Of a stretch of 64,000 bases of DNA, positions 18,101 through 43,700 are shown piece by piece. The stretch's first letter is position 1, and each line of letters begins with the position of its first letter. The stretch is from Narcine bancroftii. Lineage: Eukaryota. The notes beneath the pieces are model-generated. The model was not told the origin of the DNA and searched no databases. It saw nothing but the letters and a program-made list of their open reading frames with translations. The stretch spans positions 88,660,001 to 88,724,000 of the forward strand of contig NC_091478.1 of the NCBI RefSeq assembly GCF_036971445.1. Reading direction: 5' to 3'. The position numbers and the translations under genes are program-made.

Positions 18101-21100
18101 CTCACAAAGTATAGCCACTGGCATCAACGAGGAGGATCCAGGACGGATACTCAGAGATGTTGATACCCAGGAATTTGAAGTTCATGACCATCACTGCCGT
18201 CCCCTCGATGAGGACGGGGTCATGTTCCCCGACTTTCTCTTGAAATCCACAATCATCTCCTTGATTTTGCTGATGTTGAGTGCAAGATTGTTGTTGTGAC
18301 ACCACTCAACGAGCTGATCTATCTCCTTCCTGTCCTCTTCCTCATTGCTGCCCGTGATTCTGCCCACAACTGTGGCGTCATCGACAAATTTGCATATAGC
18401 ATTTGAATTGCGCCTGGCCACGCAATTAAATAGAAGGGGAAAAAAATTGCTGGATGCTCATTTCAATTTCACTCTCTATTGAATTCCAGCTATTGCTTGT
18501 GGGATTTATGTTGGTTTTCTGACAGAGAAGGGAGATTTGTGGCTGTTAGAGAACAGAGTCATGACTTGATGCTTGGATTACAGAATAGAAGTGGGCTTAC
18601 AAGATATTGAGAAATTTGTCTCATAATAACTTCAGGTTGCAAGTCCGAACATCTATGCAGAATAACCTGAAGTTTCCTTCAACTTTCCAGAAACATTCTT
18701 TACATGGTCATGGAGCACCGGTTAGCTTTAACTTGTCCAGGTTTGCATGTGTTTATTTCATAAAATTAGATACAATTAGGTGAAGAACAAATTGTTTCTC
18801 TTCATCCTTTGTTCAAGTGTGTTCTGATCATTAAAAGCAGAAAGAACAATGTACAGAACAAGGTAAAACTGTACACAGTACATTGATCTTAGCTCCCACT
18901 GAAGAGTATCTGCAAATGTAGTTTTCTTTAGCTTTGAACTTTTGATCGTCACAATTAGAATTTCAAGATTCACAAGTTAATACCTAAGCAATTCATTTCA
19001 TTCTTAAAAAAGTCATCAAGTTTGCAGATGACACAACAGTTGGCTTAATCAGCAACAAGTCGCACTAGAGAAGAGGTGGAAAATCTTGTGAAATGGTGTG
19101 AGAGTAACAACCTGAGTCTCAAAGTGGACAAGGTGAAGGAGATGCTTTTGGACTTCCGGAGGACCAGGAACGACCACCCTCCCCTCTGTAGTAGAGAAAA
19201 TGGAGAGAACCAAGTTCCTTGGAGTTCATTTAACTAGTGACTTACAGTGGACACTCAACATCTCACTTATCAGGAAGTAGCAACAGTGAATGCACTTCCT
19301 CAGAAGACTGAAGTGGGTAAGGCCATTATTATGTCAACCTTCTACAGGAGCTCTATCAAGAACATCCTGGTCGGCTGCATCATAGTGTGATATGGTTGCT
19401 ACAGAGAAATATATTGAAGGTCAATCCACAGGACCATAAAAGTGGCAGAGAGTATCTCTGGGGTCTCTTTTCTTCCCCCCCCCGCCCCCCCCCCCGACAC
19501 CAATTGACCTGATCTACCGGGACTGTTGTGTGAACAAGGCGTGCAAAATCATTTGAGGACCCCTTCCACACAGTATCTTTCACCCGCTCCTGTTGGGGAA
19601 GAGATACAGGAGCATTGGAGCTAGTACCTCCAAGCTGAGGAACAGTTTCTTCCCACGGGCAGTGAGAAAACTGAACAACCAAAGGAATTGCTTACACTAA
19701 CCATCATATGTACAAAACAACATTTCTTTATATGTAAATAGGAAATAAATGTCCTGCATACGTATTGTTTGTCTATGCGTGATATGGACTGGTTGTGTGT
19801 CTGCATGTTTTGCTCCGAGGACCAGAGAATGCTGTTTCATCAGGCTATGCTTGTACAATCAAATGACAATAAAATTGACTTGATAAAGGCAGGAAAAGTT
19901 AAATGGAGATCATTTCTGCATATTCAAATCACGCATCAATTTCAAAATGTAAACAGTTTCAGTGTGCAATTTGAGACTTCAAGAGACATTATTATTGATA
20001 CACAGACCTGCTGCAAGTGCAACTGCTATTGCTTCTTTATTGGCTGCAGAAAGGATCTGGACACCAAGAGGAAGGCTGGGGTAGGACTGTCTCACAGCAG
20101 CACAAACAGTTGCCATGACAGCAGTCACTTCTGGACCAACACTTGCACTGTAAGGAATGTCGTGCATATTTTCCACTATTAGTCCATCCTTTGGAGAATT
20201 CCAGAAAAAAATTAGTTGGACGGATAAACAGTTTATTTCATATCAACCAATTCCCACCCTTAGAATCTAAAGTGCTTTCAAAGTCAAAAACATTGCAAAA
20301 TGACATTGGAATGTAATTTACATTTAAAATTTAGACGTACAGCACGGTAACAGACCTTCTGGTCCATGAGCCCGTACATTCTTTGAAAGGTAGGAGGTCA
20401 CTGATGCTGTAATAGAGTTGCACTAACCATGCCGCCGATGGTTAGTGAAGTTCATTTTATGATCAGTTAATGTTATGCTCTTATTTGCGTTAAATGATTA
20501 TTTTGATTGAATAATTTTAATTATTATGCTTTACTTGATACCATTCTTGAAGATTGTTAATAATAATGAGTTTACTGTCATATACATTGTACATAGCACA
20601 TGCAACTACAATGCAGCCAAACTTGTATTTGAATAGAAAATACAAATATAATAGCATTCATTAAATTTAAAAGAGAATATCACAAAATTTATGGATAAAT
20701 AGTTTTCAGAATGTTATCTATTAATTCTTTTTAGTATTTAGTTACTCAATGGACAAAAAATACACCTTATTATCTGATCTGGAAAATTGCTTCTGATCCA
20801 CAAATAATAAAGCATGAACATTTGTAATCTACATCTTTGTTTTCTTTTATGGGATTGTCTGTTGGGTCGATGAGCAAACTGACCACAAAATGAGAGGAAT
20901 TTTGCAAGCTGTTCTCTCTCTCTGATTCTGTTAGAAACCCACAGCAAAACAGAGAATGTTATAATGATTATATTTTTGCTTTTCAAACCTAATAATTGAT
21001 TTATTTAATAGTAGATGGCATGATTTTGAATCTCAACATGTGGGTTCATCAAAAAAAGTTAATGTGAAGGCTCCACTATCAACCCACAACCCAGCTTCAT

Positions 21101-23032: not shown

Positions 23033-26000
23033 GTATTTACTAAAGTCAAACACGCAAATCTGCAGACACCGTGGTTGGTGAGAAGGCAGAGCTGGGGAAT
23101 CTCGGTGTCCTTTATGTAACAAAGATATAGAGCCAACGTTTCGGCCTTAAACCTTTCCCAAGGGGGGAAAAGACCTTTGGGGAAGGGTTTGAGCCCCCAA
23201 ACCTTGGTTCGGTATCTTTGCTCTCTAAAGGACACGGTTTGACCAGCTCCGTGGGGTTACTTTTTAAAAAAAAAACTCGCCACGTTTTCAAGTCTACGCT
23301 TTCCTCTTTAGTGGAAAAAGAGAAGAACATCTAACAAAGACCGAAAGAGCAAATGAGGCATGGCGCTCCAGAAAGCGAAAAGCAGACGTGGCCACGGTGA
23401 GTCTCAACCTGACACCCACTGTGCGTTGGGTATCACCGAGGCACAGAAAACAGGCCCTCCTGCTCCGTGCCGCAATCTCATCCCATCGGCCTGCACCCAG
23501 TCCATAACCCTCCAGACCTATCCAATGTATTCTTCACACTTCAAGATCGAACCCGCATTCACGACGTCAGATGGCAGCTCGTGACATGTTTCTTTCAAAC
23601 TCTCTAATGATTCGATTTTCTTTTTAAAATTGTAGTGTTTGCAAGATTTGGATGAAATTAGCGAAGAACAGGCAATGAAACCATTCCAAGAAGAGGTAAT
23701 GGCCTGTTGGGGTTGTTTCTGTTAGCTTGTCTCGTGCAAATTGTTCAAACATTAAAGGGGAGTTTTATCCTTAGTCGATGTTGCATTAACGTGTACTTTT
23801 AGCATTGTTTCCTGTGCAAATTTGGTGCGGATCTCACGAGACCTTAGGGGTGAATTATGTTAAGTTTTATGGTTTGTTGATCTAACATAAATCATTTTTG
23901 TATATCCCTCACAAAAAGTTAAATTCCATATTCAATTCATTCTTTTGCTTTATTCTGTAATGCTGGGCTTTCACCCCGATCCTTATTATTTCTTGTTTCT
24001 TTTGGCCTATTCTGCAACTTCATTCATGTCCTCTTGTCAATCTCCCAAGATATTTCTCGTTCGCGGTCGTTGCCATCTAGTGGGCATGAGCAGAACTGTC
24101 AAAAGTTAATCCTGTCGACGACGCAAAGTGCTGGAGGAACGCAGCAGGTCAGGCCGCGTCCATAGAAGGTCAAAGTTCCAGGCTCTTGCTCCAATTTTCC
24201 AGCATCTGCAGTTGCTCTAGTTTATCTGCTCTCACTCTTTTGCAGATTGCACTGATTAGTCGAGGTTGGAGAAGCTGTCCTGGAGTGATTTGCCCTTTGT
24301 CCCAGGAAGTTGTTTTTTTTTTGTGTTGATCCATTAATTGATTAAATATGATCACGTTGATATCTTGGCTTTGGTTAAGAAATGCCAAGGGTAAAAAGAA
24401 CACTGTATGACCTGGTGAGTTTCTCCAGCATTGTTTTTCAAAAATCTGTTCACCTTTTGGCCCCACAAGATCCACTTCTGGTTCAGCTGACGTTAAATAA
24501 TTTGCCAAATGCATGCCCATATTTTGTGTTCACTCCCTCAGTCTATCTTTATTGTTGCATCAAAATGGCCTTTTTCAAGTCACAAATGACCTTTTGTTTT
24601 TTGACTGGTAAATTTCCATTCTTCCCCAGCTTGGCACAATTGACTGTTTCACCCTCTGAACTTGGGAGGTGCTGCTCTTGATCGCATTCATGTTTTGTGA
24701 ATTGTGACCAGAAAATCATCTGCAGTGGTTTCAGTTCCTCTGGAGATCTAATCTTGGCCACTTCTGTATGATAGCTAGTTACATATTGAAAATGCATTGG
24801 GTTTCTTGTGTATGCAGCTGATGTTCTCTTTCATCTATTACTCTGCAGTCTTTCAGCCTTGTTAGGTTGGTATTCCAACTCGAGCCTCTTGCACACTCAA
24901 TTTGATTTCTCACCATTCTGAGTGGAATGTTCCTGATGATTTTTGTGGCTCAGATGTGTGCAGCTTGAGCCTCATGTGTAACTAAAGGTGTACTTTATTT
25001 TCCTGCAACATGTATGATGTCTAAAGAGGCATTTCACTTGGCTTATCCCTAAATATTCTCGGGTGGTGTATTTTGGAATGGACCAAACTTGGTTTGTAAT
25101 TTCGACCAACTTGCAGTCGTTTCCAGAACAAAAAGTTGTACGGTAAACTAAAATGCCACAGTACAATCTCTTTGTAATCAGCTGAATGACTAGAATACCT
25201 TTACATTTAGGGAAATCTTGGATTATTTGCAGTTCTGTCGAGAAAATGTCTTGATGTCATGAAGTGCTTTGTCTGGTTTTAAAGTTTAATTTTGGAGAAC
25301 TGTCTCTGACTGACTTTTGTTTTTGGCCCTGACTTTTCTCTCTAATACTCTTGACTTATTCTAGGCTGCAGTTTTTTTTAAATTTAAAAAAAAAGAGAAA
25401 TACCAGCTCCCAACAGTTTATTACCCAGTGGTTATCCTTTAAATGAACTGCCAGCAAAAGCATTTTAATGGAATATTTGCATCTTCATATTTGGCTGAAT
25501 TTTCCTGCTTCATCTAGAGTTGGGTTACTTGATTGCAGGCCAATATCTGGTCTAATCTTATTTTAAATATGGACAAAAACAATGACTTTTGGATAAATGG
25601 GCTTTTGGATAAATGATTCATACTATAACCAAATGTCTTTAGGTGGTGAACTTTAACAGTTGCTGGGAAGTGGCACTCGCAACATGTGGAAGTATTGAGA
25701 TTTCCAGGTTGGGATGGTGCATGATTTGAAGTAGAATATCTTGGCATTCACTTCCTGGCTCTGGTCTTGTTAAAAAGGATGAATATTCTGCCCAAGAAAC
25801 CCTTGGTAAAATGCAATTTGCAATGATTTAACTACGATGCACTGAAAATAAAGGAAGGCTTCAAGTTTAATTTGTGTGAGCCGCCTTATTTGAAGCATTT
25901 ACCTGAGTAAATGTGTACATCCAAAATGTGTTGATGGTGGAGATAGTGAATGAATGTCAAAGGTAACTTTGGTAGAGTTGCTGGGGCTGTTGAGATTTTG

Positions 26001-29000
26001 TGCCTAGATTCTTGTTCACTCTTATTGGCCTCTAAAGACATTTGAGAACTTGATAAACATAGGAAAAAGGATTCGATAACATAAATTTGTTCTGCCACTC
26101 AACAAAATGAGGACTGATTTTAATACCATATCTGCTGCTTCTCTAATCCCGTGATTTTTTTTCATAATTCTTAAAATTTGATCTAATAACATCTAATTTG
26201 TTGCATAAATTTAAAATGTCCATGACTGGGGTTGCATTGCTTGTGTATGGACAAAGTTCTTTCCATAAATGCAATTGTTTTAATGGTAATTCAACAGTTT
26301 CATATTCACCTTTATTGGTGGTAGCATTTTATCTGGAATAATTTAAATTCCCAAGCTACTATGGTGGAATTTGAACTCTCATCCATTGGCTTGTTCAGGG
26401 TTTTGAGAAATCAGCATTTTATCTCCACAGTTTAAGAAACTGTCAAAATTTTCTGCTAGTATTGAAACTTTCCAAAGAAGGATGTAAGCCAGCAAAATTG
26501 CTATACTGTTTCAATGCCATGACATGGAGTTTGTCTAGTTGTATGGAGGAGGGTGAAGTTTTAAAAAATGTATTGGGGAAGGCAGCCTATCTAGCATGGG
26601 CAGTAGATGCTGCATTTGACTTTGCGATCATAAGCTGGATTTGGGCTCCAGTGCCAAGAAACGGCATTTTAAGAATTTACAAAATTGACTTTAATTGCAG
26701 GTTTGCTGGAGCATTAATACCAACTATGCGAGTCCATGCATTTTCATTTCATCATCACACAAAAATCCAGATAGCAGGTTTGCATCATATTCTACAAGTA
26801 ATATACAGTACAAGTTCAAAAATGTCTTGGTCACACCAACTAGAGCTTCACCATTACCAGTCTTTTGGTGAGTTTATTTATTTGCACCATTCATTCGTGT
26901 ACCTTGACTGCATATTCCAATGCATATCCAATCATGGTATTTTAAAAAAATCAACAGCTGGGCAAATGGCAGTGAAGTGTGGAACGTCCTTCTGAAAAAG
27001 GATCAGATCTATTTGAGAGACAAAGACGTCTTACAAAAACATCCCCTCTTGCAACCGAAGATGAGGACTATTCTTTTGGACTGGTTAATGGAGGTAAGCA
27101 CTCCAATTAAATTGCCAGTCCTGCTTTGATTTTATTAAACCAATATGTGAAATATTCTTGGGGAAAATTGGCTTCAGAATTTGAATTTAAAATCTATGCT
27201 TTATTTGTAGATATTGACAAACTTGGTTTTTGCTTTTTAGTTATTCTCCAACAATGGTCTACAAGATTATGAAAGGCATATTTAGGGTGGACATCTAGTG
27301 CCTGTTCACCAGGACAAGAATAGCGAACACCAGAGGAGAGGAGTACAAAATAAAGGGAGGGAAGTTTGGGGGAGACATCAGGGGTTAGTTTAGTTGTGGG
27401 TGCCTGGAATGCCTTGCCAGGTATAGTGGTGGAGGCTGAAATATTAGGGGAATTTAAGAGACTTGGGCACATGGATGGAAGAAAAATAGAGGGTTATGGT
27501 TAGAACTTTTGTTAAGGAATATATGGGTCAGCACAACATCAAGGGCCAAAGGGCCTGTACTGTGCTGTAATGTACTGTGGTCATCAACGAATTGGCCTCT
27601 CCATTAGAGCATTTTTGTATTAGGATTTTGATCATTGGGATATGATGTTCAGGTTAGAATGGTTATACAAATAACTCCAGAACGAGAGTTGTAATATAAT
27701 GAGTCTTTCCTGCCAAAGACAAGAAATCTAGAAAAGGCTGAATAGTCTGTATTTCTGGCGTTTTGTTTGAATTTATAAACTATTGACAGAACTAGAATAA
27801 TGCAGTTTGACACCCATACATTAGTTTTCAGGGATGCTTCAATTAATATTTTAAAAAGTAACTGGAAAAATCATAGGAAATTTAGGTGCCTGTTAATTTT
27901 GATCTATTCATCTATCTATCTATTTATTTATTTATATATTTATTTTGCAACATTGAAAAGGTTTGTGAAGTCTACAAGCTACACAGAGAAACCTTTTATT
28001 TGGCCCAGGACTACTTTGATAGATTTATGGCAACACAGAACAATGTTGTAAAGACAAGATTGCAGCTTATTGGTATTTCGGCTTTATTTATTGCTGCAAA
28101 GCTGGAGGTATGATATTTACAAGCAATTCACAAATTGAGCATACTTTCCAACAGAGCATTCAATTATAATTTTTTTTTCCCAGGAAATATATCCACCAAA
28201 GTTGCACCATTTTGCTTTTGTTACTGATGGGGCTTGCACAGAAGAAGAAATTCTCAACATGGAACTTGTTATTTTGAAGGTACTTCAAATTTAGTGTTTT
28301 CAATAACTGCCATTATACAGGGAAGCTGAAGAAATTAAAATTATCTGTTGTTCAAAGATATTTGGAAATGCTGTCAATTGTATGTAACCTATTATCCAAT
28401 GTTTTCAAATTATTCCAGGCTCTAAAGTGGAGTTTGTGTCCTGTAACCATTGTATCTTGGCTTAACATCTACATGCAAGTTGCTTATTTAAAAGAAATAT
28501 ATAAAGTACTGGTTCCACAATACCCCCAGGAAATGTTTATTCAAGTAATGGAGGTAAACTCATTTAGGTTAATTTTTTTAGCTACTGTTAACAAATAATC
28601 GGGCAGTAATGATTTTAACTATCCATCAGCTTGATCTCTTACTTATGGAAAAGTGGCAGCTTCAGCTTTATTATTTCACTTCTTGTGCCATAGTTCACAA
28701 AGCATCAGGTAGGTTTTTAATATGTAACACAATTGACAGGATTACATTTAATTTCATTAACAAGTTTTATTTTGTGCTTAGGCTTTGAATGGAGTGAAAT
28801 AGAAGGATGTGTAAAATGGATGATTCCATTTGCTATGGTCTTGAGGGAAGCAGAAACTCTAAATGTAACATTTTTCAGGGGTGTAGAATATTGGAATAAA
28901 TTACTGTTTGTAGATCAAAATAATTTTTAATATATAGCACATCAATTTAAAACTGAAATACAAAAGCTGAGTAGTGACCAATAAAAACAGATTGTGCTAT

Positions 29001-30268
29001 TAATGGAAGGTTTCATCCTTGATAACCAGTTAATTTTAAATGTTTTTTTGTAAAAACGTGCCCTGATTTAGAAACGGGGGAAGTGAGCAGTTTTTTGCAA
29101 GCAGCTGTTGACTGCAGAAAATATTGGGTTCCACATCCATAGAAGCACAGGTATACCATTGTGCATACACAGAAATATGGTCTCGACTCGTAACTGTGTT
29201 GATCTCTCCAATAGATATGGGGAAGAAAGAATTTCCAGTCTCTTGCTTTTAAGTTCAGTTTTTGTAATGATAATAGTCACATGTTAATTGCTTTCTCAAT
29301 AGCTACTGGATCTCTGTATCTTGGATCTCGAGTGTTTGGAGTTCACATCTGGAGTAGTGGCAGCTTCAGCTTTATATTATTTCACTTCTTGTGCCATAGT
29401 TCACAAAGCATCAGGTAGGTTTTTAATATGTAACACAATTGACAGGATTACATTTAATTTCATTAACAAGTTTTATTTTGTGCTTAGGCTTTGAATGGAG
29501 TGAAATAGAAGGATGTGTAAAATGGATGATTCCATTTGCTATGGTCTTGAGGGAAGCAGGAAGTTTAAAACTGAAGAAATTAAAAGGTGTCTGTCCTGAG
29601 AACATGCATAACATACAGACACACTCCAATTGTTTGTCATTATTGGTAAGCTTGATTTTGTATGCCTAGAGGACCAGACATTTTATAACTAACGTACCTT
29701 TGTACAACATTTGGGTGGGGGATGGGGAAGGGAAAGGGGAAATTGAACATGTTTCCTTTTAATCCCTTTCTGATCAATTTGCACAGTTGAACTGAGTTCA
29801 GCGTGATAATTCAAAAAGTCACCAATGCACTAAGAATGCAAGTTCTGAACAATATTTGTCTCCAGCATAACCTGAGTCTTGCTGTTTGCAAGAAAAAAGG
29901 AGCTTTCTCTTGCATTATGACAGTCACTACACTTAATACCAACAAAAATGCTCATGAAGACAAAAAACAAGAATGTCAATGTATAATGCTTGAGATGCAC
30001 CCCTTGCTGCATACTTCTGAAAATGAGGAATACCTCTTTTGAAATGCCTCAAATTTGAATCTTAAAGTAAATTTTCCAGTTAACAATTCAAATGAGCAAA
30101 AATTCATTTCATCAATTGCCTTGATTTAATTTTTGTTGCTTTTGTTCTAAGGATAAAGCTCACTCAAGGCAAGCAATGCTGTTGGAACAAAGTTGCGCCA
30201 TACCTTCTGGAATTTTGACCCCGCCACAAAGCAGCAAGAAACAGCACTCTTGGAGTGGGTCCTTGTGA
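23019..30268 (+). CDS. CCNE1: G1/S-specific cyclin E1, 11 coding exons, 408 aa
   Basis: join(23019..23032,23312..23396,23636..23695,26701..26867,26958..27093,27961..28107,28184..28279,28419..28553,29303..29414,29488..29645,30152..30268) = 1227 nt. Motifs [61 protein letters not shown]1 lies downstream, the known CCNE1 (not CCNE2) synteny. Confidence 0.96.
23312..23396 (+). CDS. CCNE1: CCNE1 exon carrying the NLS ([11 protein letters not shown])
   Basis: 85 nt; ttcctctttag / gtgagt borders. Confidence 0.92.
23636..23695 (+). CDS. CCNE1: CCNE1 exon ([20 protein letters not shown])
   Basis: 60 nt; resembles the FLQDPDEE segment of tetrapod cyclin E1. Confidence 0.85.
24069..24086 (-). promoter_or_regulatory. 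Candidate CTCF site
   Basis: Minus strand reads CCACTAGATGGCA, matching the CCASYAGRKGGCR core. Confidence 0.6.
26701..26867 (+). CDS. CCNE1: CCNE1 exon (VCWSIN...[10 protein letters not shown])
   Basis: 167 nt; ttgcag / gtgagt borders; SPLP motif. Confidence 0.9.
26958..27093 (+). CDS. CCNE1: CCNE1 exon (WANGSEVW...[11 protein letters not shown])
   Basis: 136 nt; start of the cyclin box. Confidence 0.95.
27961..28107 (+). CDS. CCNE1: CCNE1 exon ([11 protein letters not shown]...AAKLE)
   Basis: 147 nt; cyclin box. Confidence 0.95.
28184..28279 (+). CDS. CCNE1: CCNE1 exon ([10 protein letters not shown]...VILK)
   Basis: 96 nt; AG/GT borders. Confidence 0.95.
28419..28553 (+). CDS. CCNE1: CCNE1 exon ([10 protein letters not shown]...[12 protein letters not shown])
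   Basis: 135 nt; AG/GT borders. Confidence 0.95.
28630..28930 (+). pseudogene. Degenerate tandem copy of the two following CCNE1 exons (pseudo-exons or alternative exons 28630-28708 and 28782-28930)
   Basis: 28652-28853 matches 29356-29559 except for a 2-nt deletion; weaker codon-aligned similarity continues on both sides; in-frame stop ends at 28930. Confidence 0.85.
29303..29414 (+). CDS. CCNE1: CCNE1 exon (LLDLCILD...VHKASG)
   Basis: 112 nt, intact. Confidence 0.93.
29488..29645 (+). CDS. CCNE1: CCNE1 exon ([13 protein letters not shown]...[13 protein letters not shown])
   Basis: 158 nt; donor gtaagc. Confidence 0.93.
30152..30268 (+). CDS. CCNE1: CCNE1 terminal coding exon (DKAH...[10 protein letters not shown]...GSL*)
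   Basis: C-terminal Fbw7 phosphodegron LTPPQS; TGA at 30266-30268. Confidence 0.95.
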   Translation, partial: DKAHSRQAMLLEQSCAIPSGILTPPQSSKKQHSWSGSL

Positions 30269-30547
30269 AATTCAACTGCAACTTTTAAATTTAGTGGGTG
30301 TTTTTTTTTTCCCCACATCTAGAAATCTAAATGAAAATGAACAGAAATGTTGGGACTTCATTTGTGTAATATCAGATGCTGAAGACTGCCAGGAATTTTG
30401 CTCTCATTGTGCTCTAGTGGGAGTCTCACTTGATTCTGGGCCTTTTAAAGCTATCTACTTGTACGACTTGTTTTTATGCACCATTTGAAAGCTGTTTGTA
30501 TAGCCAAAAACTCCAACCAAATCAGGAATACTTTAAGTAATCCTAAA

Positions 30548-30651
30548 TGCTGCTAAGGAGGGTGGCTCCCTGAAAAATGAACAGTGAGGTGATAGTACTG
30601 ATTTATAAAATTGTTAATGAACTTTAAGCTGCTATGTTTATTTTAAATAAA
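30548..30651 (+). promoter_or_regulatory. CCNE1 3'UTR: miR-15/16 seed sites and polyadenylation signal
   Basis: TGCTGCTA at 30548-30555, GCTGCTA at 30628-30634, AATAAA at 30646-30651. Confidence 0.75.
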
Positions 30652-31052
30652 GGTACATCTATATTATATGCCCCTGTTCCATTTATAATGATGCAACTGG
30701 CTGAAGGTATGGAGGATGGAGAACAAGGGCTCTTTGATCTTGCTGCAACAAAGGGAAGTCAAGTTTGAGAAATCAGGAAATGTAAGCCTTCATCCCTAGG
30801 GCCATTAAGTGGCTGAGATAAGAGATGCATATTTTGAATTTTCCCTATATTTGGGGAAGGTTCCATGAAATTGGAAAATAGCACACGCCTTGTTGGATAA
30901 AAAATTTGCAGAGCAAACGAAATAATTTATATCTGCCCCTCCAGCCAAGTGTTACAGCCATATTCTGGTTTATAGACGCTCACCTTAATTAACAGTGGCT
31001 GTGGGTGGGGCAGGACTAGGGTGCTCCGCTGGCTCAGCGATTGCCCCAACTG

Positions 31053-31424
31053 AGGGTTTGTGTGTTGCTTCTGAGAACATTCTTTTAGAATTTTAAACTT
31101 AAATTTTTATTTATTCTAATTATTTTATTAATTTTACTTAATTCTTTTGCCGGTTGCTGGTTCCTTGAATTCCAAATAACAGGGATTTTGCTGTATTCAG
31201 AACTTGTGCAAATGAAAGTAATTACACCACTAGACTTGCTTTTCCTGATACAGGGGCAAATGATGCAGTTTTATATTACAGTAAACTACTAAGTACAGGT
31301 TGATGGGAGATAGCTGCTCATTTTGAAAACTCTTAAATATTTTTCAAGAGGTAGCATGGCTCAAAAATCAAGATATTGTAATCAAGCAATGTCAACATTA
31401 TTAACCAATTTATTGATGTTCTGT
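31053..31424 (+). repeat. ~372-bp direct repeat, copy A
   Basis: Near-identical to 36678-37048 (about 3 differences by eye). Confidence 0.93.
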
Positions 31425-32544
31425 AAAATGACACAGGTTATGCCAGTGTCCTCTAGTGTGTAAAAGAGCAACAGGTTGAAACAAAAATCGTGAAGGGTCT
31501 TGACATCCTGGATGTGGAAAGCATCTAAAAATAGGGATCACTTTATATATAAAAAAAAAAATTGTCCAATTTAGATGAGGTTTTTTTCTTAGGATGGATT
31601 CTTGAAGTTCCAAAGGGCAGTGGAGTCTGAACCATTGCTCATTTAGGGTAGAAATTGATAGATAATTGAAATCAAGGGCCTGAAAAATTAGCATAGAATT
31701 GAAGTTGCAAATTTTGTTAAATAACAGCAGGCTTGTACCCTACATCATTTTTAATTTACACTTTTTGGTTGACATTGCTGTGTACTTTCTAACTCACCAC
31801 CAATAATTTTAAAAATGACCTCCTCTTTACCCAGTACTTGGATCTACCCTTTTTAATTTCATTACTGCATTAATCCTTACTCAACTAACTTTCTCCCTTA
31901 ATTTTTTTCCATGCCTTTATGTAGACTTTGAGAAAGCTGAACACTTTCCTCCTACTTTTCAATTGACAATTTATATCTCACCAAGATTTTGATTTCTTTA
32001 ATTTTACCTTTTTGTTATAGCTGTAGAAACAAGACTCGTCTGACTGATATCATAACCACTACCCCTTCTTTGACTTGGCTCTTCCTTACTTATAATAGTG
32101 AGAATAAGTACAGCATTCTCCAGAACTCTATTCATCTACCCTGAGGAACTATCTATTTCTATTGATCCAGTCCAAGTCAATCATCTATAACATAGTTGTT
32201 TAGGTTTGATCAGACACAGATAAAATTCCGTTAGTGAAGTCGATGTTTTAAGATGGTTGTAAATGAAGTGTAGAAACTTAACTTTGCATTTTTTTTAACC
32301 CAAGGAACTTGAAGAACAAACATTGACCTTTCCCCTAACCCCCAAGAAAGACAGCACAAATTCAGGAAGGGCTAGCCCTACCGAAATATCTATCATGTTA
32401 TGGACTTCCAGAAAAGATTTCGTAAGGCTTTCTTAACTGAAGAGGTATCCAAGATATTGATCGAAGATTTCTACCTCCAGGGTAGAAAAACAAATCAAAT
32501 AATATTCAAACATAAAACAAAGGAGGCAGCACAAAAGTATTGCT

Positions 32545-32960
32545 GCAGCCGGCAGCATGGTGGCGAAGCTGCTCCGAGTTCGACACCAAAAAGAACCTGG
32601 GACTTGTTCCCTTGAAGCACAAGATCCCATCCCCTACCGTCTGGGGCCGCCCCGCCTCCTCGATCTTCAAAGCCGCCGCCTTGACCTCGGCGTGCTCTTC
32701 GTCGTGTCGGTGGCGGCGAGCTGGGCTGACAGGCTGATTCACAGACACTAAGGAACCCGTCAACATGGTGGCCGCGGGGTTCCTCGCACACATAGAGGGG
32801 TATCCACAACAATCGCAGCACAAAATATTCTCCTGCTTGAGCGCAGCCTTGCCAAGGAATCGCCCTCGGTCTCAGCACCACCGCCAGCTGAACGCCATGT
32901 TCCTCGCGCGGAGGATGCCGGGAGCACACGCAGAGAGACGCCGGACCTGCTGCAGCTGCC
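32545..32960 (-). pseudogene. Inverted, diverged copy of the URI1 promoter / exon 1 / start of intron 1
   Basis: Collinear blocks match 37105-37695: ccggcatcctccgcgc..gaacatggcgt; cccctctatgtgtgcgagga; ccccgcggccacc; gaagagcacg..aggt; ggagcagct.cgcca. Confidence 0.85.
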
Positions 32961-33090
32961 CGCGCGGAGGATGCCGGGAGCACACGCAGTGAGGCCTGCT
33001 GCAGCTGCCCGCGCGGAGGATGCCGGGAGCACACGCAGAGAGGCGTCGGACCCGCTGCAGCTGCCCGCGCGGAGGATGCCGGGAGCCCAC
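32905..33090. repeat. GC-rich minisatellite, ~3.5 units of 49-56 bp
   Basis: cgcgcggaggatgccgggagc begins at 32905, 32961, 33010 and 33066. Confidence 0.92.
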
Positions 33091-33499
33091 AAGTAGCAGG
33101 ACATCTGAAAGTAACTTTCTCAGTTAGAATCTTCCTCCCTTGGAAGTAAGGGTCTTTATGGTTTAGATTGGTGTTGATTAATACATCAAATACATTAACA
33201 TTAATTAATTAACTAAAATATTGATACATAATTACAACTTGGTTAATGCTTAAACTGGGACATTTACAAATGGCTTGAAATTCCGTAGCCCTGACCAAGG
33301 CCAGCAGAGAGTTAGTGGGTTGTCCCGGCATTTTGGCTTGATGAATTTCTAACAGTTTAGTTTCTCTTGAGTCATGTGATTTGCAGGAATGGTGGGTATT
33401 GAAACTGTGGAAATACCTTCAACTCTAATCACAGAGCACCCATGGGACAGGGATTACTTAAGGTGGTATGTGAATGGAAGGAAAGTTTGTCAACAACTG

Positions 33500-34140
33500 A
33501 TTTACATCATTAACATCCCTATGGTACCTCGTTGCTTCTTCCTGCTCTGTTGTTTGAGGGGCTTCCTCTTGGTCTCAGCCCCCTCAAAGCCCAGTAATGT
33601 GAGAACTAGACTGTGGTCCTTTCCCACAGTGCTCTCATACTGGCTGCACCAAGCCTCTGTTTGTCCTTCAGCACGCACCGCTGCAACCTGGAATGTACCA
33701 GTTGGCAGCATTCCCACACCGACATGTCCGCGTGCTGAAAGACCAACAGGTTTTGGGCAGGCCAAAATGTGTCTTTCACCAAGTTGTTGGTCCAGGAGTT
33801 CTGGATGTCTGACTCTGTGTCGTCCCCTGGAACAGCCCATAGATCAGAGTCCCCTGTCACGCTACCACTGGGAATGAACTCTTGCATTCTTCACACACTT
33901 GTGCAATCAGCATTCTGCAGGTGGGTGGGTGGGATCGGGGACTACACGTATTGTGGGTGATGTTTTGGTTGTAGATTGTGGAGGATCTGTGTCAATCCTC
34001 AATCCAAATTCTGGGGTGAGAACTAAATCAGCAGTTTATTCTCCTGAGGAATGAAGGGCTCAGACTTTTCTTTAGCCAGTTCCCTTTATTTGTTACACAG
34101 GCTTGTGGGAGGGCCATCACCTCCACAGAGGATCCAGGAG
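33500..34140 (-). mobile_element. Tx1/L1-like LINE 3' fragment
   Basis: VKDTFWPAQNLLVFQ...ECCQLVHSRLQ..VLKD..RLGAA...WERTTV resembles a Tx1-type ORF2 C-terminus. Confidence 0.65.
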
Positions 34141-34271
34141 CTCCCCAAAAGTACAAAGTCATGGGTTTAAATTCTCCAACGCTATCTGATATCAACCATT
34201 CTCAAAACAGTCACCTCCCAGGCAGCAAGCATTATCCCATCAGCATTAAGCAATGATATGTTCATCGACAT

Positions 34272-34625
34272 CAGTGATTTTCAAACTTTTTCTTACCATT
34301 CACATACCACCTTAAGTAATTCCTGTGCCATAGGTAATCACAAAGCACCAATGGCATAGGGATTACTTCAGGTGGTATGAGGGTAAAGGAAAAGTTTGAA
34401 AACCACTGTTTTAATTGTACCTCATTGACTTGTTACGTGCACAGTTTCATAACTCCAAAGGAAATGGGCCAAAGACAATTTTTCTCATGCAAAATATTTC
34501 AGTAACAATTAGGTCTAGAACAGTGGTCCTTAACCATTTTTTTCACCCTCGCATCCTAATCACAGAGAACCTATGGTATAGGCAAAGTGGAAAGTGAGTG
34601 GAAAGAAAAAGTTTGAAAACCACTG
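34272..34625. mobile_element. hAT-like palindromic MITE(s), same family as 12937-13311
   Basis: cagtgattttcaaactttt...aaaagtttgaaaaccactg; shared internal hairpin cataccaccttaagtaat / attactt.aggtggtatg; related pieces at ~33400-33500 and ~39080-39200. Confidence 0.7.
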
Positions 34626-35324
34626 ATGTAAATAGAATTGGATGTATCAATGTACATCGATAGGAATGTATAGCTATGATTGATGCTATGGATGTGAAAA
34701 GACTTTGAATGTTTTTGTAAATAATTTATTGTGAATAAAGTCTATTTTGAGGGGAAAAAAATCTGTGCTGCACAGTTGCTGCTCTTCCCCACTACTCTAT
34801 GCTACTTAAGTTAATGCTTGATACAAATCTGCCCCCTGAACCCAGCCTTGCTGAACTGAATGATCTGCTCCCCTCATTTCCAATACCATGTATTATCTCT
34901 CCCTCATGCTGGCATGGTGCTTCAAAGCTCCCCATTGTCTGTGCTGGCCTCGATGCAGCATGTGTTCTCCCCATGACCTGCACTGCTTCCTCTTCAGTTT
35001 TGGAAAGTAAATAACACTGGAGTTGCTGGAATCTGACACAAAAATTTCACTAAAGAAAATGCATTAGAGACAAATAATCAGTTATTAGGAAGACTCCAAG
35101 ATAAAAGTAAAACACAAAATATTTAAACAGTCCCTCCAAATCTAAAAGGACTGAATTGATCAGAAAATACCGTGGAATATGCTTAAAGGACCTTTATAAA
35201 TTCATCTCTTTATTTTGACTTTGCTTAAAATATGTGAGCAGCAAAGAACAAAAATGTGACTGTGACAGCTGCAATAAGTTCACACATTACAAGGAATTTA
35301 ATACATGAACTTGATTTGGAGAGG

Positions 35325-36125
35325 AGTAAAACACAAGTCCACAGACACCATAATTGAAGTAAAAACTCAGCAAGTCAAACAGTGTTCTTTATATAGCAAA
35401 GATAAATATACATAACCATTATTTTGGGTTTGAGCCTTTCATCAAGATATGAACAAAATGGTAGGGGAGAGGAGCACAGTCAACAATCTGGGTTCTGTTG
35501 GCCCACTCCCTGTTCTCCGTCTCTTCCATATCCCTCTGGAATAAATAGAGTTACAGAAAATGGATGGGAAATGGGCTGACAGGCAACAGAGAATGGTCAT
35601 AGTGCTCTGTCGGTTCTGGGACTGGAAGGAATTGTGTGGTGGTATTTTACCATGGGGTCAATGCCAAGATCAGTTTTTCCAACTCATTACTGTCTTGGAC
35701 ATCAGTGTATAGGGCACAATTTTCAAAGCTGCAGATGGGAGAAAAAAAGGAAACTGAGAATGGTAATACACTTCAAGAGGATATAATTGGAGGAGCAACA
35801 CCTAATATTCTGCCTGGGCACTCTCCAACTGGATGATGTTGACTTCTCCATTTTCTGCTAGATCACTCCCTTTCTTCCTCTCTACTCTAGTTCTCTGTCT
35901 CCTTTCCTCCAGCTCTCCACCCCCTTCCCTCTCTATTCACAAAGCTATCCCTCCCTTTCTTCTCTACCTATTGCCCCTTGCCTGTGGGCCTATGTTCCTT
36001 CCTCTGCCCTCTCCGTCCATTATTCTGTTCATACCTCGATGAAGGGCTCAAGCCCGAAATGTTGGTTGTGCCTTTTTTATCTTTGCTATATAAAGAATGC
36101 TGTTTGGCCTGCTGAGTTTACAAAA
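35325..36125. mobile_element. Penelope-like element remnant with inverted termini
   Basis: EEQHLIFCLGTLQ-type C-terminus at ~35790; 35370-35450 is an inverted copy of 36035-36120. Confidence 0.6.
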
Positions 36126-36533
36126 GCAGAAATGATGGGGCTGCCCAGCCAATCAAGCAGCATGTGTGGAAGGAGAAACTAATCAATATTTCAGGTTGAA
36201 GAGGTTTCACTGAAAATCAAGTTCTAAACAGTGAAGGAGGGGAGAGAGAAAAATAGCCAAATAATGTTCTACCTCTTCCTCAGTATCACCAACTACTCTT
36301 CTCCCGTACTTGTCCTGCATATGTACTGCCTGTATGCGTGTTTTGGACCCGACGACCCTGTTTTGTTGGGTTGTACTTTTGCAATCGGATAATAAATTTG
36401 ACTGTTTTCTCCAACATTGTGTTTTTACTTTACTCTGCGTCTGTGTTACTGTTGACTATTGCCTGCATGTTCACCTTCCCATAGCCTGTACTTGCTGAGC
36501 GCCATGCATGCGAGACTTTGCCCAGTATCGTTT

Positions 36534-36679
36534 CTTTTCCATGTGGCATGTGCCCTTCCCCTCTCACTTCATGTGCTGCCATTCTCCACGCAGCCCTCCC
36601 TGCACCCTGCGCGGAGGGAGGGAAACGAGTGTGATGCCTCGCTTGGGGAGCTCTGGAGGGCACATGCCACATGGAAAAG
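36534..36679. repeat. Perfect 23-bp inverted repeat with 100-bp spacer
   Basis: cttttccatgtggcatgtgccct (36534-36556) and agggcacatgccacatggaaaag (36657-36679). Confidence 0.9.
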
Positions 36680-37048
36680 GGTTTGTGTGTTGCTTCTGAG
36701 AACATTCTTTTAGAATTTTAAACTTAAATTTTTATTTATTCTAATTATTTTATTAATTTTACTTAATTCTTTTGCCGGTTGCTGGTTCCTTGAATTCCAA
36801 ATAACAGGGATTTTGCTGTATTCAGAACTTGTGCAAATGAAAGTAATTACACCACTAGACTTGCTTTTCCTGATACAGGGGCAAATGATGCAGTTTTATA
36901 TTACAATAAACTACTAAGTACAGGTTGATGGGAGATAGCTTTCATTTTGAAAACTCTTGAATATTTTTCAAGAGGTAGCATGGCTCAAAAATCAAGATAT
37001 TGTAATCAAGCAATGTCAACATTATTAACCAATTTATTGATGTTCTGT
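36678..37048 (+). repeat. ~371-bp direct repeat, copy B (abuts the URI1 CpG island)
   Basis: Near-identical to 31053-31424. Confidence 0.93.
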
Positions 37049-37049
37049 T

Positions 37050-37760
37050 TTGCTGCCTGCGCTCCCTGCCTCCGCCGCGCGGGGCGCTAGCGCCGTCACT
37101 AGGGCAGGTCCGACGCCTCTCTTGCGTGGGTCCTCCCCTCCCGGCATCCTCCGCGCTCGGAACATGGCGTGCAGCTGCAGGTGGTGCTGAGCCTGGAGGG
37201 GGGATTCCTTGTCGGAGCCGCGCTGGAGCTGGTGGGATTAAAAATGCGAGTGTGAGATGTTTCGTGCGGCGACGTGGTGGATGAAAGCGCCTGCCCCCTC
37301 TATGTGTGCGAGGAGCGTGGAGCCCCGCGGCCACCGTTTTCGCACACACAAACACTTCTTTAGGACTCCCCGTTGCTGAGTGTTCGCGGATCGGACCCCC
37401 GGCCGCCGCCTGCAGGGACATGGCGGACTCGCCGCCCCGCTCCGCCGCCCCGCAGACCCGCTCGCACCCGCTTTCCCGACTCAGAGAAGAGCACGACAAG
37501 GTAAAAGGCCTTTAATAGAGAGAGCGGCCAGTTGGAAGAGCGAGGAGGCTGAGCGGTGGGAGTGCCGGTCTCCGTCGGAAGGGGCGGGGACCCTCCGCCC
37601 GTTGCTTGTGTTTCGAGGGTTCGCTGCCCGGCTCCGGAGGTCCTGCTGCACCCACGACTGGTGGCGGACTTGGAGCAGCTCCGCCAACGCTGTTGCTCAT
37701 CTCTCTCCCGGTGCAGAACTTGGTGGTTCTGCAACTGTTGCGATTAACCTGTTCGACCAG
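37050..37760 (+). promoter_or_regulatory. URI1 CpG-island promoter
   Basis: CpG-dense; YY1-like AACATGGCG at 37161-37169. Confidence 0.8.
37420..37500 (+). CDS. URI1: URI1 coding exon 1
   Basis: gacATGGcg Kozak context; AAG|gtaaaa donor; lies in a CpG island. Confidence 0.88.
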
Positions 37761-40700
37761 CTTGTTTTAAGAGTCAACGCGCTGTATTTCTCTCCTAAAA
37801 CGATACAGATTTGATTTAAAAAAAACCCAAATTGCAACTGAATTGCCCCTAATCACTTTCGTTTCAACTTGTGTCTCTTTACCTGCATCGTGAACTGGGG
37901 TAACTGCTTTATTTTCAATTGTAAATAAGCAACCGACTGCCATTGAAAGAAAAGATCTGATTTGAGAAATATGAAGTTCATGTAGGGTATGGAGAAGGTA
38001 GGATATATTAGCTCAGACTCTGAAGCTTTTTTAAAAATCTGCCCCTTGTAGTGTATGCCAATGACTTTAAATTCTACCCCCTTGTTTTTGACTCCTCTGG
38101 TAATGGAGATATACCTTTATTTATTCCTATCTAGGCCCCACGTAATTTTGTGCATCTCATTTAGGTCTCCTCTGTTCCATCGAAAATATCCATCATAAAT
38201 TACAGTTTTCTAGTCCTGAGGATCTATTGTGTATCTTTCCCCGTTGCAATGATGTGTGGCAGAACTGAATGATCTATTCAAGCTGTACCCCTGAACTAGT
38301 GTGTTGAAGTCAGACTTGGCCTCCTAATTTTGTATTGTGTCGATTGGAATAATAAATATTAGCATCCTGAAAGATTTCCAAATGGGTTATCTCATACTTC
38401 TCTAGATTAGGTTTACCATTTTTTGGCCTCTTCGAGACCATCTCAATTCCGCTGCAGCTTAAAATCATTCATTTTGTATCTATGCAAAATTTCTTCTATA
38501 ATTGATATACCTTATTAAAATAAGGAATTGAATACAGAGTCCCAATGTGGCTTGGGTGATAGCCACATAGTCACAAAAGCACCCACCATTCTCTGCTTGC
38601 CTTTTAGTCAATTTTGGATTCATTGTGCCAGTCCTTTGGATCCCATGGGCTTTCACTTTTTGAGCAGTCTCCCACATGGAACCTTGGCAAAACCTTTACA
38701 TAATTCCAGGTCACGACATCAACCACTTTACCCTCATTGACCATTCTTATTATCTTAAAAAATTTAAACATATTAATCAGAAATTACTTTCCCTTGGCAA
38801 ATATATGCTAACTGTCCATGATTAATCTGTCCCCTTTAGAATTAATTCCATTCCTTTGTGCACCATCAAAGTTGAAAGAAATTGGCCTGTAATCACCTTT
38901 GTTTAAAAATCTGTGTCAGGTTAGCAATCCTCCAAACTTCTGTATACTACTTAATGGGCAGAGAGGGACTGAAGAAGTAAAGTCAGTTTATGCAATTTCT
39001 TCTCTTTTGTCTTTTAACAGACTGGAGATTTTGATTTATCCGTTTCTGAAAATGTTAACTTCCTTAAAAGGAATGTTCTCAGCTTTTTTTTCCACTCGCA
39101 TACCACTTTTAAGTAATCCCTTACTAACCACAGGACCTATGGCATCCTATAGGTGTGATTAGGTTAGTAAGGGATTACTTAAGGTGGCATGTTGAGAACC
39201 ACAGCCTAAAAACGTCGCTTTAATGCTTTTGTTCCTTTCAGTACTCCATGGTTATCTGCCTTAACTGCATAAGTAGTATATTTTCTCTCGATTGTGATGT
39301 TATTTTTAAATTTGAGACTCTGGCTCACATTCTCCACCTATCTACCATTCAATACATTTGAATGACAGGTTAGATGGTGAGACGTACTTTTTCAGTTGCT
39401 TGCAGCTGAATGTTGCATTTTCTGCCAATTAGCTGTGCTGTGCAGTCATTGGAAACTGGTATTTGATTTTCACGTGGACAGTGGTGAGCTTTGTTGGTGC
39501 TAATATTATTCATATGGAGAAATTCAGTCTTTAAAGTTTCAGGTTGCAGTTTTCCCTGTGCTGTTCTTTCATCTGTCTGGGGGAATGTTGGTGAGGAACC
39601 AGACTGAAAAATGGAGTCACGTTTGTGCTTTTTCATTCAAACTGGGTGCCTTTTCTAAATGTAAGATGGCATATTATCACTCCATTAGTCATTAAAAAAA
39701 AAAAGAGGTTAGGTGAGAACAAAAGCTAGAGAACATGGGTTAAGGATGAAAGGGGAAAAGTTTAAAGGGAATATTAGAGGGAACTTCTTCAGGCTGATAA
39801 TGGTGGGAATGTGGAACTGACATTTAAGAAAAATTTGGGCTGGTAGATGGATGGGAGGGTCATGGAGGAATATGATCTGGGTGTAGGTCAGTGGGACTAG
39901 GCAGAAAAATACAAGAAGGGTTGAAGGGCCTGTTTCTTTGCTGTAATATTCTATGGTTCGAGAACAAATCTTTGCATTTTGTATACACATTGTTTTTGTG
40001 ACTTGCTGAATGCCACGATCGGCTGTGGAAAAAGGGGAAACCAATTTGAAGGAATTACTGGTTGATTTCTAAGGGAGTTGATGTGCAAGAATTTAAATAA
40101 TTGGAAAATGTATTCCAAAATTATCATTTTTCAAAATGGAAGCGAATGTATTACAAATGGGTAAATTAGATATTCCACTCTCCCAGTTGTTGCCAGTTGT
40201 GTTTCTAGAATATTTGGAAAAATGGGTATATTGCATCATGTTTAATTGATAAACTATATGAAAGGAAAATCATTTCATGAACAATGGGCAACAAGTTAAA
40301 AGGAATACAGCAATAAATATGGAACTGGCTCCAAATTTTCACTTGCTGAAAATCTCAAAGAAAAATATAAAAAATGCTGGAAGAAGTGAAAAAGCAGCAC
40401 ATTTGGTAAACATTTTGGGCCAAGGACCATTCATCTTAATTGGAAAAGTGAAAAGATGTGTGTACCTTAATTTGCATTGTGGTGGAAGGATGGAGAGAAT
40501 GTTCGTAATAGGGTTCAAAATAAATGTGTTGTTTTCTCTGTTCCCATCTCCTTCTCTGCATCTTAAAATAGATTAGTCTTCTCATTTTACCAATTCTTAT
40601 GAAGGGACCTTGACCTGAAATGTTGGCTGTTTTTCTATTCTCACTGTCGCTGCCTTCCTTACTGAATGGTTCCACTAAAAATAGAATGTTCCACTTTTAA

Positions 40701-43700
40701 ACTTAACAGGTTATCAAAGTAATACATTTGTTGTTGCATATAAATAACATGGATATCTACTTTTTTACCTATTTACACTGAGTAACTAAATACATCATTT
40801 CGAAAACAGTTGGATTTGCTTTGCTGTTCAAGGGGCATTATGTCCACTTGGAAGTTCAACAATTTGCGCATGTATTTAATAATAGTGTAACTGAATTTAC
40901 AATGTTAATGACTTTCTTTTATATTGAAAGTATGCTTTTAATTTAAATATTCTTTTCTTTGGCTTGGCTTCGCGGACGAAGATTTATGGAGGGGGTAAAT
41001 GTCCACGTCAGCTGCAGGCTCGTTTGTGGCTGACAAGTCCGATGCGGGACAGGCATATATCGTATAGCTATTATTTTAATTTTTTTAATTTTAAGAGGTC
41101 TATAAATTAAAATTCAGGATACTGTAGTGAGCTGCATTGATCTACAAGCGAACCGGGTTACGGAGGTGCAGGCTCGCACTGGACTGATGTCGGGATGGGG
41201 GAGGGGGGGCCTGCAAAAGACCATGGGGATCATGGTGATAAGCTCTCTGAGTTCCAGTAAAGTCAGTTAATTGGTTCACCTCACTCACTGCTTCTGTGTG
41301 GATTTTCTTTTGTTTGCTGCACAGCGCACTGACCACAATGGTGACCCTGATGGTCCAATACGGGGGCACTTGGGATCACACAAGAAATGATACAAGTGAC
41401 AGAATACAGTCTCACTGAAGCTGCTGACCCTTTGGACCTCACAGCCGCTAGTCTGGTTCAAACGTGCTGAGGCCCAGTTTCAGGTTAGGCAGATCACAGC
41501 AGACTCCACAAGATATTACTGTGTGGTCAATTCGCTCAACCAGAAGACTGCTGGATGAATCACCGACTTCTTACATCAGCTGCCAGCTTGCCAACAAGTA
41601 TGAGGCAATTAAGGCACTCCTTATTCACACTTTTGACCTTTCCTCCAGGCTACTCCACATGGGCAGCCTGGGCGACCGTACACCGTCCACCTTTGAATGA
41701 TATGCTGGTGTTAATGGTCGGCCACAGACCATACTTACTATTTTAGCAGATATTTCTTGAAAGATGCCGGAAGATGTCTGCCTATTCCTCGTGGACAATG
41801 ACTTCAGCGACCCACTAAGGTTAGTAGCCTGTGCGGATGTTTTGTGGTACCTCAAACAATATGGTGGAGCATCCGTTGACCTATTTGCTGCATCACGCCC
41901 AGTGATTTGTGTGTCTCCTACTCCACCAAGGAGGCCAATTAAACCCGGTATTTCTACCAGGTTCTAGAGCCTGCCACTGCCGTCTACCTTGCTCTCATCA
42001 GGGAAACACCAAGGCTGGCCATCGCTGATAGCCACGATGGCAGGCCACCGAGACAGCCTACATTGGAATATGCAGTCAAGGTGCACTCAGGGCAGCATAT
42101 CCCTTGTGGACAAAGGGGCAGAGGTCAGTGTCTTGCCCCCCTCGAGCCAAGACTTCCGTGCCGGGAAGTCAGGACCATCCTTCTCTGCTGCCAACAACAG
42201 CAGCATGTGCAGGTACAGGGTGCAGACCATCTTGCTCGAGTTTGACTCCTATCATTTAACCTGGACCTTCATTTTGGCTGACATGTCTCAGCCCCTACTT
42301 GGCACAGACTTCCTTTGAGCTTCCTTCCTGGTGGACTTGAAAGGGTGCTGTCTGGTCAACACAGCCTAGACCTTCACTCTTTGAGAAGCCAAGTTCCCAG
42401 TTCCCCACTTGACTCGGTAACTTTTTTGGGTATGGGAAAGTCCCTCTTCAGTCCTTCTTGCTGACACACAGATGATTTGATCACATCCATGTGGACATCA
42501 TTGAGCTGCTGCTCGTTTCCAGAGATTCCACGTACCTGTTCATGATGGTGAACAGGTTCACTAGATGGCCAGAAGTTGTCCTGTTCTCAGACACCTCCAC
42601 GATATCCTGCACCAGGGCCCTCATCGCCAGCTGGATAGCCCATTTCGGCCTTTCTTCCAATATCACATTGGACAGGGTGAGGGACACAGGGCACATCTGG
42701 CCTATGGGCAGTGGTGTCTCAGCTCCTAGGGACCGAGTTACATTACACCACTACCTACCACCCTCAGTCTAATGGCCTGATGGAAAGGTTCCATTGGCAT
42801 TTGAAGACGGCCCTCATGACTCGGCTCCGAGGCCTGGATTGGGTGGACGTGCTGCCTTGAGTGCTTCTTGGCATCTGCACAGTGCCAAAGGAGGATTTGG
42901 CCATATCCTCCTCTGAGCTTGTCTATGGGGCCCACTGACAGTCCTGGGAGAGTTCGTACCAGAAGCTTACAGCCGAGAGGGAACACCTACAGTGCTGCTA
43001 ACATGACTTCATGAGAAGGTGGGCACCCTAGCCCCCATCCCAACCTCATGCCATGGTCCAGTTCCACCCTACATCTTGAAGGATCTCAAAAGACTGTGAA
43101 TATGTTTTCATAAGGAGGTGTGCACTGGACGGCCCTTCAGCACCCATATGAGGGTCCATATTACACAACAGGATTACGTGCATTTTGGACATTGGGGGTA
43201 GGCAGGAAATGTTCAAACTGGCACACCTTAACCTCAATCAACCAGTAACTGCTCCAGCCTTGTGGTGGAGAGGTTGGCTTCCCAAAAGTATGGACAGTTG
43301 ACGAACTGTGAACTCGGCATTCTGAACACCGGTTCTGGAGGGGGGGGGGGGGTTCATGTAGCGGGCTATCTGCAAGCGAACTGGGTCATGGAGGTGCAGG
43401 CTCACACTGGGCTGATGTCACAATAGTCCGGGGGGGGGGGGGGTGGGGGTGGGGCGCAAAGTAGGTTGTGCTGATAAGCTCTCGGACAGTTCCAGTAAAG
43501 TCGGTTGGTTTAGCTCACACAGCTTCTGCGTGGTTTTCTTTTGTTCACTGCACAGCACACTGACCACAGTACTTTATTTTCAAGGCTGATCTGCTTTATC
43601 TTGGAGTCTTCTTATCACTGACTATTTGTCTCTGATGCAATTTCTTTATGGATATGAATAAGGCATTACATCAAAAATCTCAAGTTCAGGAGTGTTATCA

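Follow-up and report, generated by a model that had tools for sequence, protein, structure and literature searches.

Does a promoter that has been copied away from its gene go on working as a promoter, or does it persist as a relic? The region behind CCNE1 in Narcine bancroftii raises this question, a preliminary description of the DNA having placed there an inverted copy of the URI1 promoter and exon 1 that could drive an antisense long non-coding RNA (lncRNA) toward CCNE1 or act as an enhancer. No paper on an inverted URI1 5' copy near CCNE1 was found by title or by the start of the abstract. In the window, by which we mean the whole stretch of 64,000 nucleotides that was analysed, URI1 (exon 1 coding sequence 37420-37500) lies downstream of CCNE1 (exons 23310-30268) in the same orientation. 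A CCNE1 exon matched the cyclin E1 of N. bancroftii (P0124) at 100% in tblastn, and the URI1 N-terminus at 37420-37500 matched URI1 isoform X1 of the same species (P0121) at 100%. URI1 exons 1-4 were located at 37420, 50373, ~55170 and ~56994, with the remaining exons beyond the window, and no second copy of exons 2-4 was found within it.

Other features of the two genes were also seen. At 37989-37997, 500 nt into URI1 intron 1 and outside the inverted copy, an ATG GAG AAG with a good donor immediately behind it at 37998 corresponds to the "MEK" start of URI1 isoform X2 (P0001) and forms an alternative first exon. CCNE1 contains an internal 220-bp duplication (28646-28863 and 29350-29569, 96.8% identical) that takes in the end of one exon, the short intron behind it and the greater part of the following exon, whose acceptor is intact. 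This duplication looks real, since the depth over its downstream copy is doubled in DNA run X2, and its upstream copy leads to a stop and could yield a truncated cyclin E1 isoform. A URI1 intron holds an open frame of 216 codons (58458-59108, plus strand) that is CpG-rich and hence probably young and resembles the C-terminal part of a LINE reverse transcriptase, and URI1 intron 1 holds GC-rich broken frames (41700-43100) that resemble LTR-retrotransposon protease and integrase. Upstream of the CCNE1 CpG island, on the opposite strand, lies an exon-like frame of another gene (19979-20242, minus strand), which resembles a BtpA-family protein.

An inverted partial copy of URI1 between CCNE1 and URI1

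The minus strand of 32545-33090 had been described as collinear with 37105-37695, and it is the part at about 32545-32960 that aligns, a 56-bp tandem array capping the upstream end of the copy. In a BLAST self-comparison, 32832-32989 matched 37232-37053 in inverted orientation (72% identity, E 3e-20), and a gapped alignment carried the match from 32989 to about 32545, and weakly to 32479, against 37053-37700 (37796), with 79.5% identity over 502 ungapped columns. The alignment score was 285 compared to a mean of 37 and a maximum of 58 for 500 dinucleotide shuffles, and the 3' half of the copy by itself scored 137.5 against a shuffle maximum of 46. A MAFFT alignment agreed with the inverted homology. 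Among 19 exact matches of 8 nt or longer, 13 fall along a single diagonal with an offset rising steadily from 44 to 299, and this shows, free of any model, how sequence was lost from the copy step by step. Its distance from the CCNE1 poly(A) signal, given earlier as ~1.9 kb, is 1894 nt (AATAAA at 30646-30651 to 32545), and the flanks of the copy (31425-32550 and 33090-33430) have no homology above noise elsewhere in the window.

Table 1. Positions in the window of the features discussed in the text
Feature	Position	Strand	Basis or remark
CCNE1 last exon	30152-30660	+	Stop 30266-30268, AATAAA 30646-30651; tblastn of P0124; RNA-like contig 30151-30656
Stretch bridged by one RNA-like contig of run X1	30151-33160		30151-32948 listed, plus 122 further letters; right end estimated from bin depth
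R1, copy of a 372-bp direct duplication, between the inverted copy and CCNE1	31053-31424		Four minus-strand AATAAA
Unspliced 86-codon open reading frame with a new ATG in GCCACC context (32766)	32506-32766	-	Probably a chance frame; in phase with the exon-1 remnant of URI1
Inverted copy with many deletions, comprising URI1 leader/promoter, exon 1 and ~200 nt at the start of intron 1	32545-32960	-	Counterpart of 37104-37695; homology continues weakly to ~32480 in AT-rich sequence
Degenerate splice donor left from URI1 exon 1 (GAG/GTCAAG)	32680-32688	-	GT at 32685-32684; donor score
YY1-like 9-mer overlapping the ATG of an 8-codon upstream open reading frame	32872-32901	-	Counterpart 37161-37190
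56-bp tandem array, 3.5 units, amplified from the segment just upstream of the YY1-like motif	32905-33090	-	TRF, unit listing
R2, second copy of the 372-bp duplication	36678-37048		98.9% identical to R1; adjoins the URI1 CpG island on its upstream side
Source: URI1 CpG island, leader, exon 1 (coding sequence 37420-37500, donor 37501) and start of intron 1	37104-37700	+	P0121 match

It is hardly credible that the arrangement is an artefact of assembly or of haplotypes linked to the 372-bp direct repeat, even though R1 and R2, which lie on either side of the block containing the copy, differ at only 4 positions. In DNA run X2, contigs 29530-31082 and 31395-32934 show 0 differences, the latter crossing the copy at single-copy depth, and R1 and R2 collapse to one contig at doubled depth; together with the 4 differences, this collapse indicates a real duplication that is much younger than the inverted copy. 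Run X9, from another study than X2, has a contig (32489-32739) that matches the copy exactly over 251 nt, and a gap-rich copy of 80% identity cannot be an allele. These contigs, which lie outside the R2 junctions, largely refute an artefact; X9 is identical wherever it covers and is therefore uninformative on the conservation of the copy. The sequence 31430-33150, whole or in part, is present in 9 runs of 3 studies. A transposable element or interspersed repeat was also considered for the copy and is ruled out by a DNA depth of 5.1 over 32510-32769, which is the single-copy level at 88% likeness.

Decay of the copy

The loss of the URI1 start-codon segment, proposed in the preliminary description, was confirmed in both the gapped and the MAFFT alignment. 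The copy lacks the ATG segment plus 25 further coding nt of exon 1, and one third of its sequence is deleted: the core alignment has 21 gaps (206 nt) in the copy versus 1 gap (1 nt) in the original. All 14 gaps of 7-25 nt are on the side of the copy (binomial p=1e-4), a count that is stable in three of four scoring schemes, the fourth aligning half the region and giving 5 versus 0, while MAFFT merges the 14 gaps into 11. Of 10 shark and ray URI1 proteins compared, 7 have the N-terminus that the copy has lost, the other 3 starting further downstream, and this, together with P0121, identifies the two gaps inside coding exon 1 as deletions in the copy; only these two gaps can be polarised.

Mid-size gaps numbered 14 per 87 substitutions in the copy and 8 per 189 in five pairs of control repeats, a higher density in the copy (Fisher p=0.004); the controls were found by BLAST and are therefore biased toward gap-poor pairs. 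Microhomology at the 14 deletions averaged 0.64 nt versus 0.86 nt at random (p=0.78), giving no end-joining signature at these sites. The one-sided mid-size deletions without microhomology are a small unexplained oddity of the copy. GC-to-AT and AT-to-GC differences were equal per site (50/297 versus 21/131), without directional bias, and identity was uniform along the copy (p=0.30). The homogeneous identity and the absence of over-conserved motifs suggest that the copy has decayed neutrally.

The divergence between the copy and URI1 is ~0.24 substitutions per site. A pedigree mutation rate of 7e-10 per generation has been reported for the epaulette shark (PMC10587355, as far as the available part of that source states it), and at this rate the divergence would need more than 1e8 generations, so that it cannot be used to date the copy. 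The codon of the copy that corresponds to Pro5 (CCG) of Narcine URI1 is CAG, encoding Gln as in five sharks and a stingray, and this may be a weak hint of its age.

The earlier description had also listed a retained YY1-like motif, a short upstream open reading frame (uORF) and an exon-1 end with a donor remnant. All of these are present, but the motif and the uORF are preserved no better than their surroundings, and the donor remnant has degenerated. The 9-mer, which we assume to be YY1-like, occurs exactly twice in the window, at 37161 (plus strand) and 32893-32901 (minus strand), and finding it intact at 80% identity has a P of 0.13. The uORF (MAFSWRWC in the copy versus MACSCRWC in URI1, each followed by a stop) is identical at 24 of 27 positions, with a P of 0.17, and both values are within chance. 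The donor remnant keeps its GT but scores -0.9 compared to 4.2 for the URI1 original and 2.1-6.3 for 8 other donors, the scores being based on approximate weights. The signs of function that can be read from the copy itself are weak. It is very improbable that the copy harbours a young micro-protein gene encoding an 86-residue product that starts at the ATG at 32766. The Kozak context (GCCACC-ATG), the frame shared with the URI1 exon-1 remnant and a leader-uORF layout that mirrors URI1 would fit such a gene, but the exact sequence is absent from the protein collection and no homologue was found there at E<=1, a shared frame has a 1-in-3 chance and open frames are common in GC-rich DNA. No Rfam family matched at the gathering score in 30000-39000.

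CpG content and germline methylation

The CpG observed/expected ratio (o/e) is 0.88 in the copy (0.84 without the array) and 0.93 in the URI1 original, compared to 0.21-0.22 in the flanks, so the copy is indeed CpG-rich despite its divergence, as had been claimed. The stretch 32501-33150, one of 7 CpG-island-like stretches in the window, has a GC content of at least 55% and a CpG o/e of at least 0.65 over at least 200 bp and lies away from annotated coding transcription start sites, and it has the sequence features of an orphan CpG island.

Long-methylated DNA would be expected to show far more CpG decay than the copy does. Transitions were found at 10/93 CpG sites versus 14/204 other C/G sites of the copy (ratio 1.6, p=0.26), while the control repeats had 20/68 versus 88/884 (ratio 3.0). 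A count per dinucleotide, made on an alignment that extends a little further, finds 25 of 48 CpGs intact and 12 of the 48 changed to TG/CA, versus 4 transitions at 59 GpCs, showing that some methylation-type decay has occurred. This substitution pattern makes it likely that the copy has been mostly unmethylated in the germline; the earlier proposal of an unmethylated copy thus holds as an inference from the lower ratio and has to be tempered by the decay that did take place.

Repeats around the copy and a possible regulatory role

The 372-bp block contains 4 minus-strand AATAAA motifs versus a shuffle mean of 1.1 (P=0.019, post hoc), and as many were found in 1 of 172 tiles. The first of them in R1 lies 1483 nt downstream of the YY1-like motif of the copy, ahead of the CCNE1 3' untranslated region (UTR). 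A minus-strand AATAAA upstream of a promoter, as in R2, would end upstream antisense RNA.

The copy might have been recruited as a regulator. It could be a convergent promoter or a GC-rich roadblock, stopping CCNE1 read-through 4 kb short of the URI1 promoter and using R1 as its own terminator, or it could act by way of a plus-strand read-through RNA that is complementary to the URI1 leader. The geometry would suit such a role, with the copy facing CCNE1 and the AATAAA-rich block found both between the two and directly upstream of URI1. Pairing between plus-strand RNA of 32680-32950 and 37104-37500 is predicted at -368 kcal/mol versus -201 +/- 11 kcal/mol for 100 shuffles, a difference that follows from the homology itself, and convergent promoters can be co-regulated according to the available part of one report (PMC11735407). 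We nevertheless consider recruitment unlikely, as block-wise conservation is not evident along the copy (p=0.30), the longest perfect match between the copy and URI1 is 20 nt, and R1 and R2 are far younger than the copy. In addition, contigs of the RNA-like runs X1 and X6 show 0 other letters over the copy, which speaks against majority A-to-G editing, rare variants being dropped from contigs. A more elaborate and, in our judgment, improbable idea is that the inverted URI1 promoter and the re-duplicated poly(A)-signal cassette together make up a self-terminating convergent "decoy" that would stop CCNE1 read-through before the URI1 promoter 6.4 kb away, with stepwise deletions of 7-25 nt eroding the inverted-repeat homology while the CpG island survives, so that an insulator would have been made from the promoter of the gene itself.

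The spacer between the copy and URI1 (33143-36650) consists mostly of high-copy repeats, with depths from hundreds to hundreds of thousands in X2, so both arms may once have been much closer. A 146-bp MITE-like element (36534-36679) with perfect 23-bp terminal inverted repeats ends exactly at the start of R2.

RNA-like cover between CCNE1 and the copy

Four of the 9 runs, all from one study, were guessed to be RNA; none of the 9 is recorded as such, a blank that carries no evidence. Contigs were aligned over 28870-36650, a stretch that ends before R2 and URI1 exon 1, for X1 and X6 of the 4 RNA-like runs, for X2 of the 4 DNA runs in study P2, and for X9; X1 and X6 belong to one study and were chosen for containing the copy stretch. 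The contigs of X1 and X6 break at CCNE1 exon edges with overhangs (in X6, 161 of 504 letters fit from 29486 and 506 of 534 from 30151) and therefore behave as spliced RNA.

Both runs cover the region between CCNE1 and the copy. A single X1 contig runs unbroken from the CCNE1 last exon into the copy, as read-through would give, and ~104 of its 122 further letters seem, by bin arithmetic, to fall in 33030-33213. This contig exits the 56-bp array at 32948 and seems to resume near 33054, a jump that could reflect a shorter repeat allele or the collapse of an assembly loop. An X6 contig (31355-32934) is unspliced across the donor remnant. The joint table was dominated by repeats, with 15 joints displayed and 917 not, so that spliced forms could not show in it. 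Over the last exon of CCNE1 the depth in X6 was 97.9, compared to 4.6-5.1 for 30753-31233 and 12.9 for 31355-32934; we regard these figures as a lead, given that there is one per contig. Likewise only as a lead, X1 and X6 have no cover at 33214, at 33223 and in bin 34850-35109, where DNA run X2 does have cover.

The RNA-like cover is unstranded and carries no start sites, and it fits both antisense transcription and CCNE1 read-through. An antisense lncRNA from the copy, as put forward in the preliminary description, is accordingly possible. It can also be argued, though we find it less likely, that the copy is a silent CpG-rich pseudogene fragment without promoter activity and that the RNA comes from CCNE1 read-through past the poly(A) site. 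Pol II runs for kilobases past a poly(A) site, X1 joins the CCNE1 last exon to the copy in one contig, and CCNE1 intron contigs in both X1 and X6 show that nascent RNA is present. Moreover, there is no plus-strand AATAAA or ATTAAA between 30651 and 33200, and the motifs of the copy are retained at background level. Against silence stands the CpG content, which after this much divergence implies long protection from methylation; such protection usually accompanies open, initiating chromatin, and read-through of the gene-body type would tend to methylate the copy.

Discussion

Our results place the copy in a recognised class, the unprocessed (duplicated) pseudogene fragment or orphan CpG island. 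The alignment with URI1 is collinear through the leader, exon 1 and ~200 nt of intron 1, and the retention of leader and intron sequence indicates that the copy is DNA-derived. With the parental frame disabled by its deletion and an intact parent nearby, it is by its sequence an unprocessed, 5'-partial duplicated pseudogene similar to BRCA1P1. Like other members of the class, it meets CpG-island thresholds and has no intact parental frame, and it differs from them in the density of its 7-25-nt deletions, which is above that of the five control repeat pairs.

BRCA1P1 is described, in the available part of the report, as a 5'-partial duplicated pseudogene with a broken ATG that is transcribed as an lncRNA (PMC13167737). 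Both BRCA1P1 and the copy are partial 5'-end duplicates near the parent gene, non-coding and with a destroyed start codon. However, BRCA1P1 keeps three exons and is a proven source of lncRNA and circRNA with a reported function (PMC13167737, same part), whereas the copy is left with part of a single exon and a degenerate donor, faces the 3' end of a neighbouring gene, is ~80% identical to its parent with one-sided deletions, and is known from sequence and unstranded contigs. The convergent promoters described in the accessible part of PMC11735407 are promoter-proximal pairs that yield 5'-overlapping RNAs. They share with the copy a promoter-like element oriented against an active transcription unit, but the copy points at a 3' end from a position 1.9 kb beyond the poly(A) signal.

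The explanation that we favour, with modest confidence, is that the inverted 5'-partial URI1 duplicate carries a CpG island that is likely unmethylated and is likely a weak leftover promoter that sends an unspliced non-coding transcript towards CCNE1 and probably has no selected function. The copy would have arisen long ago by local inverted duplication, and the repeat-rich 4-kb spacer would have grown afterwards. Orphan CpG islands escape germline methylation, and the island of the copy may do the same. Minus-strand RNA would initiate near the YY1-like motif or the 56-bp array and, with no good donor near its start, would stay unspliced; RNAs without a 5' splice site terminate early, as stated in the available part of PMC12211998. 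The transcript would then meet the first AATAAA of R1 after ~1.5 kb, before the CCNE1 3' UTR, and an RNA ending in R1 would overlap the CCNE1 read-through zone but not the CCNE1 mRNA. The continuity of X1 with the CCNE1 last exon and the partial CpG decay count against a weak promoter, and the deletion of one third of the copy may have removed promoter elements that are needed.

In conclusion, the copy provides a lineage-level example of a promoter duplicate that has outlived its coding sequence as a CpG island and seeds a possible new non-coding transcript. If convergent firing does limit CCNE1 read-through, a promoter copy would here have been turned into a terminator that separates two closely packed growth genes.
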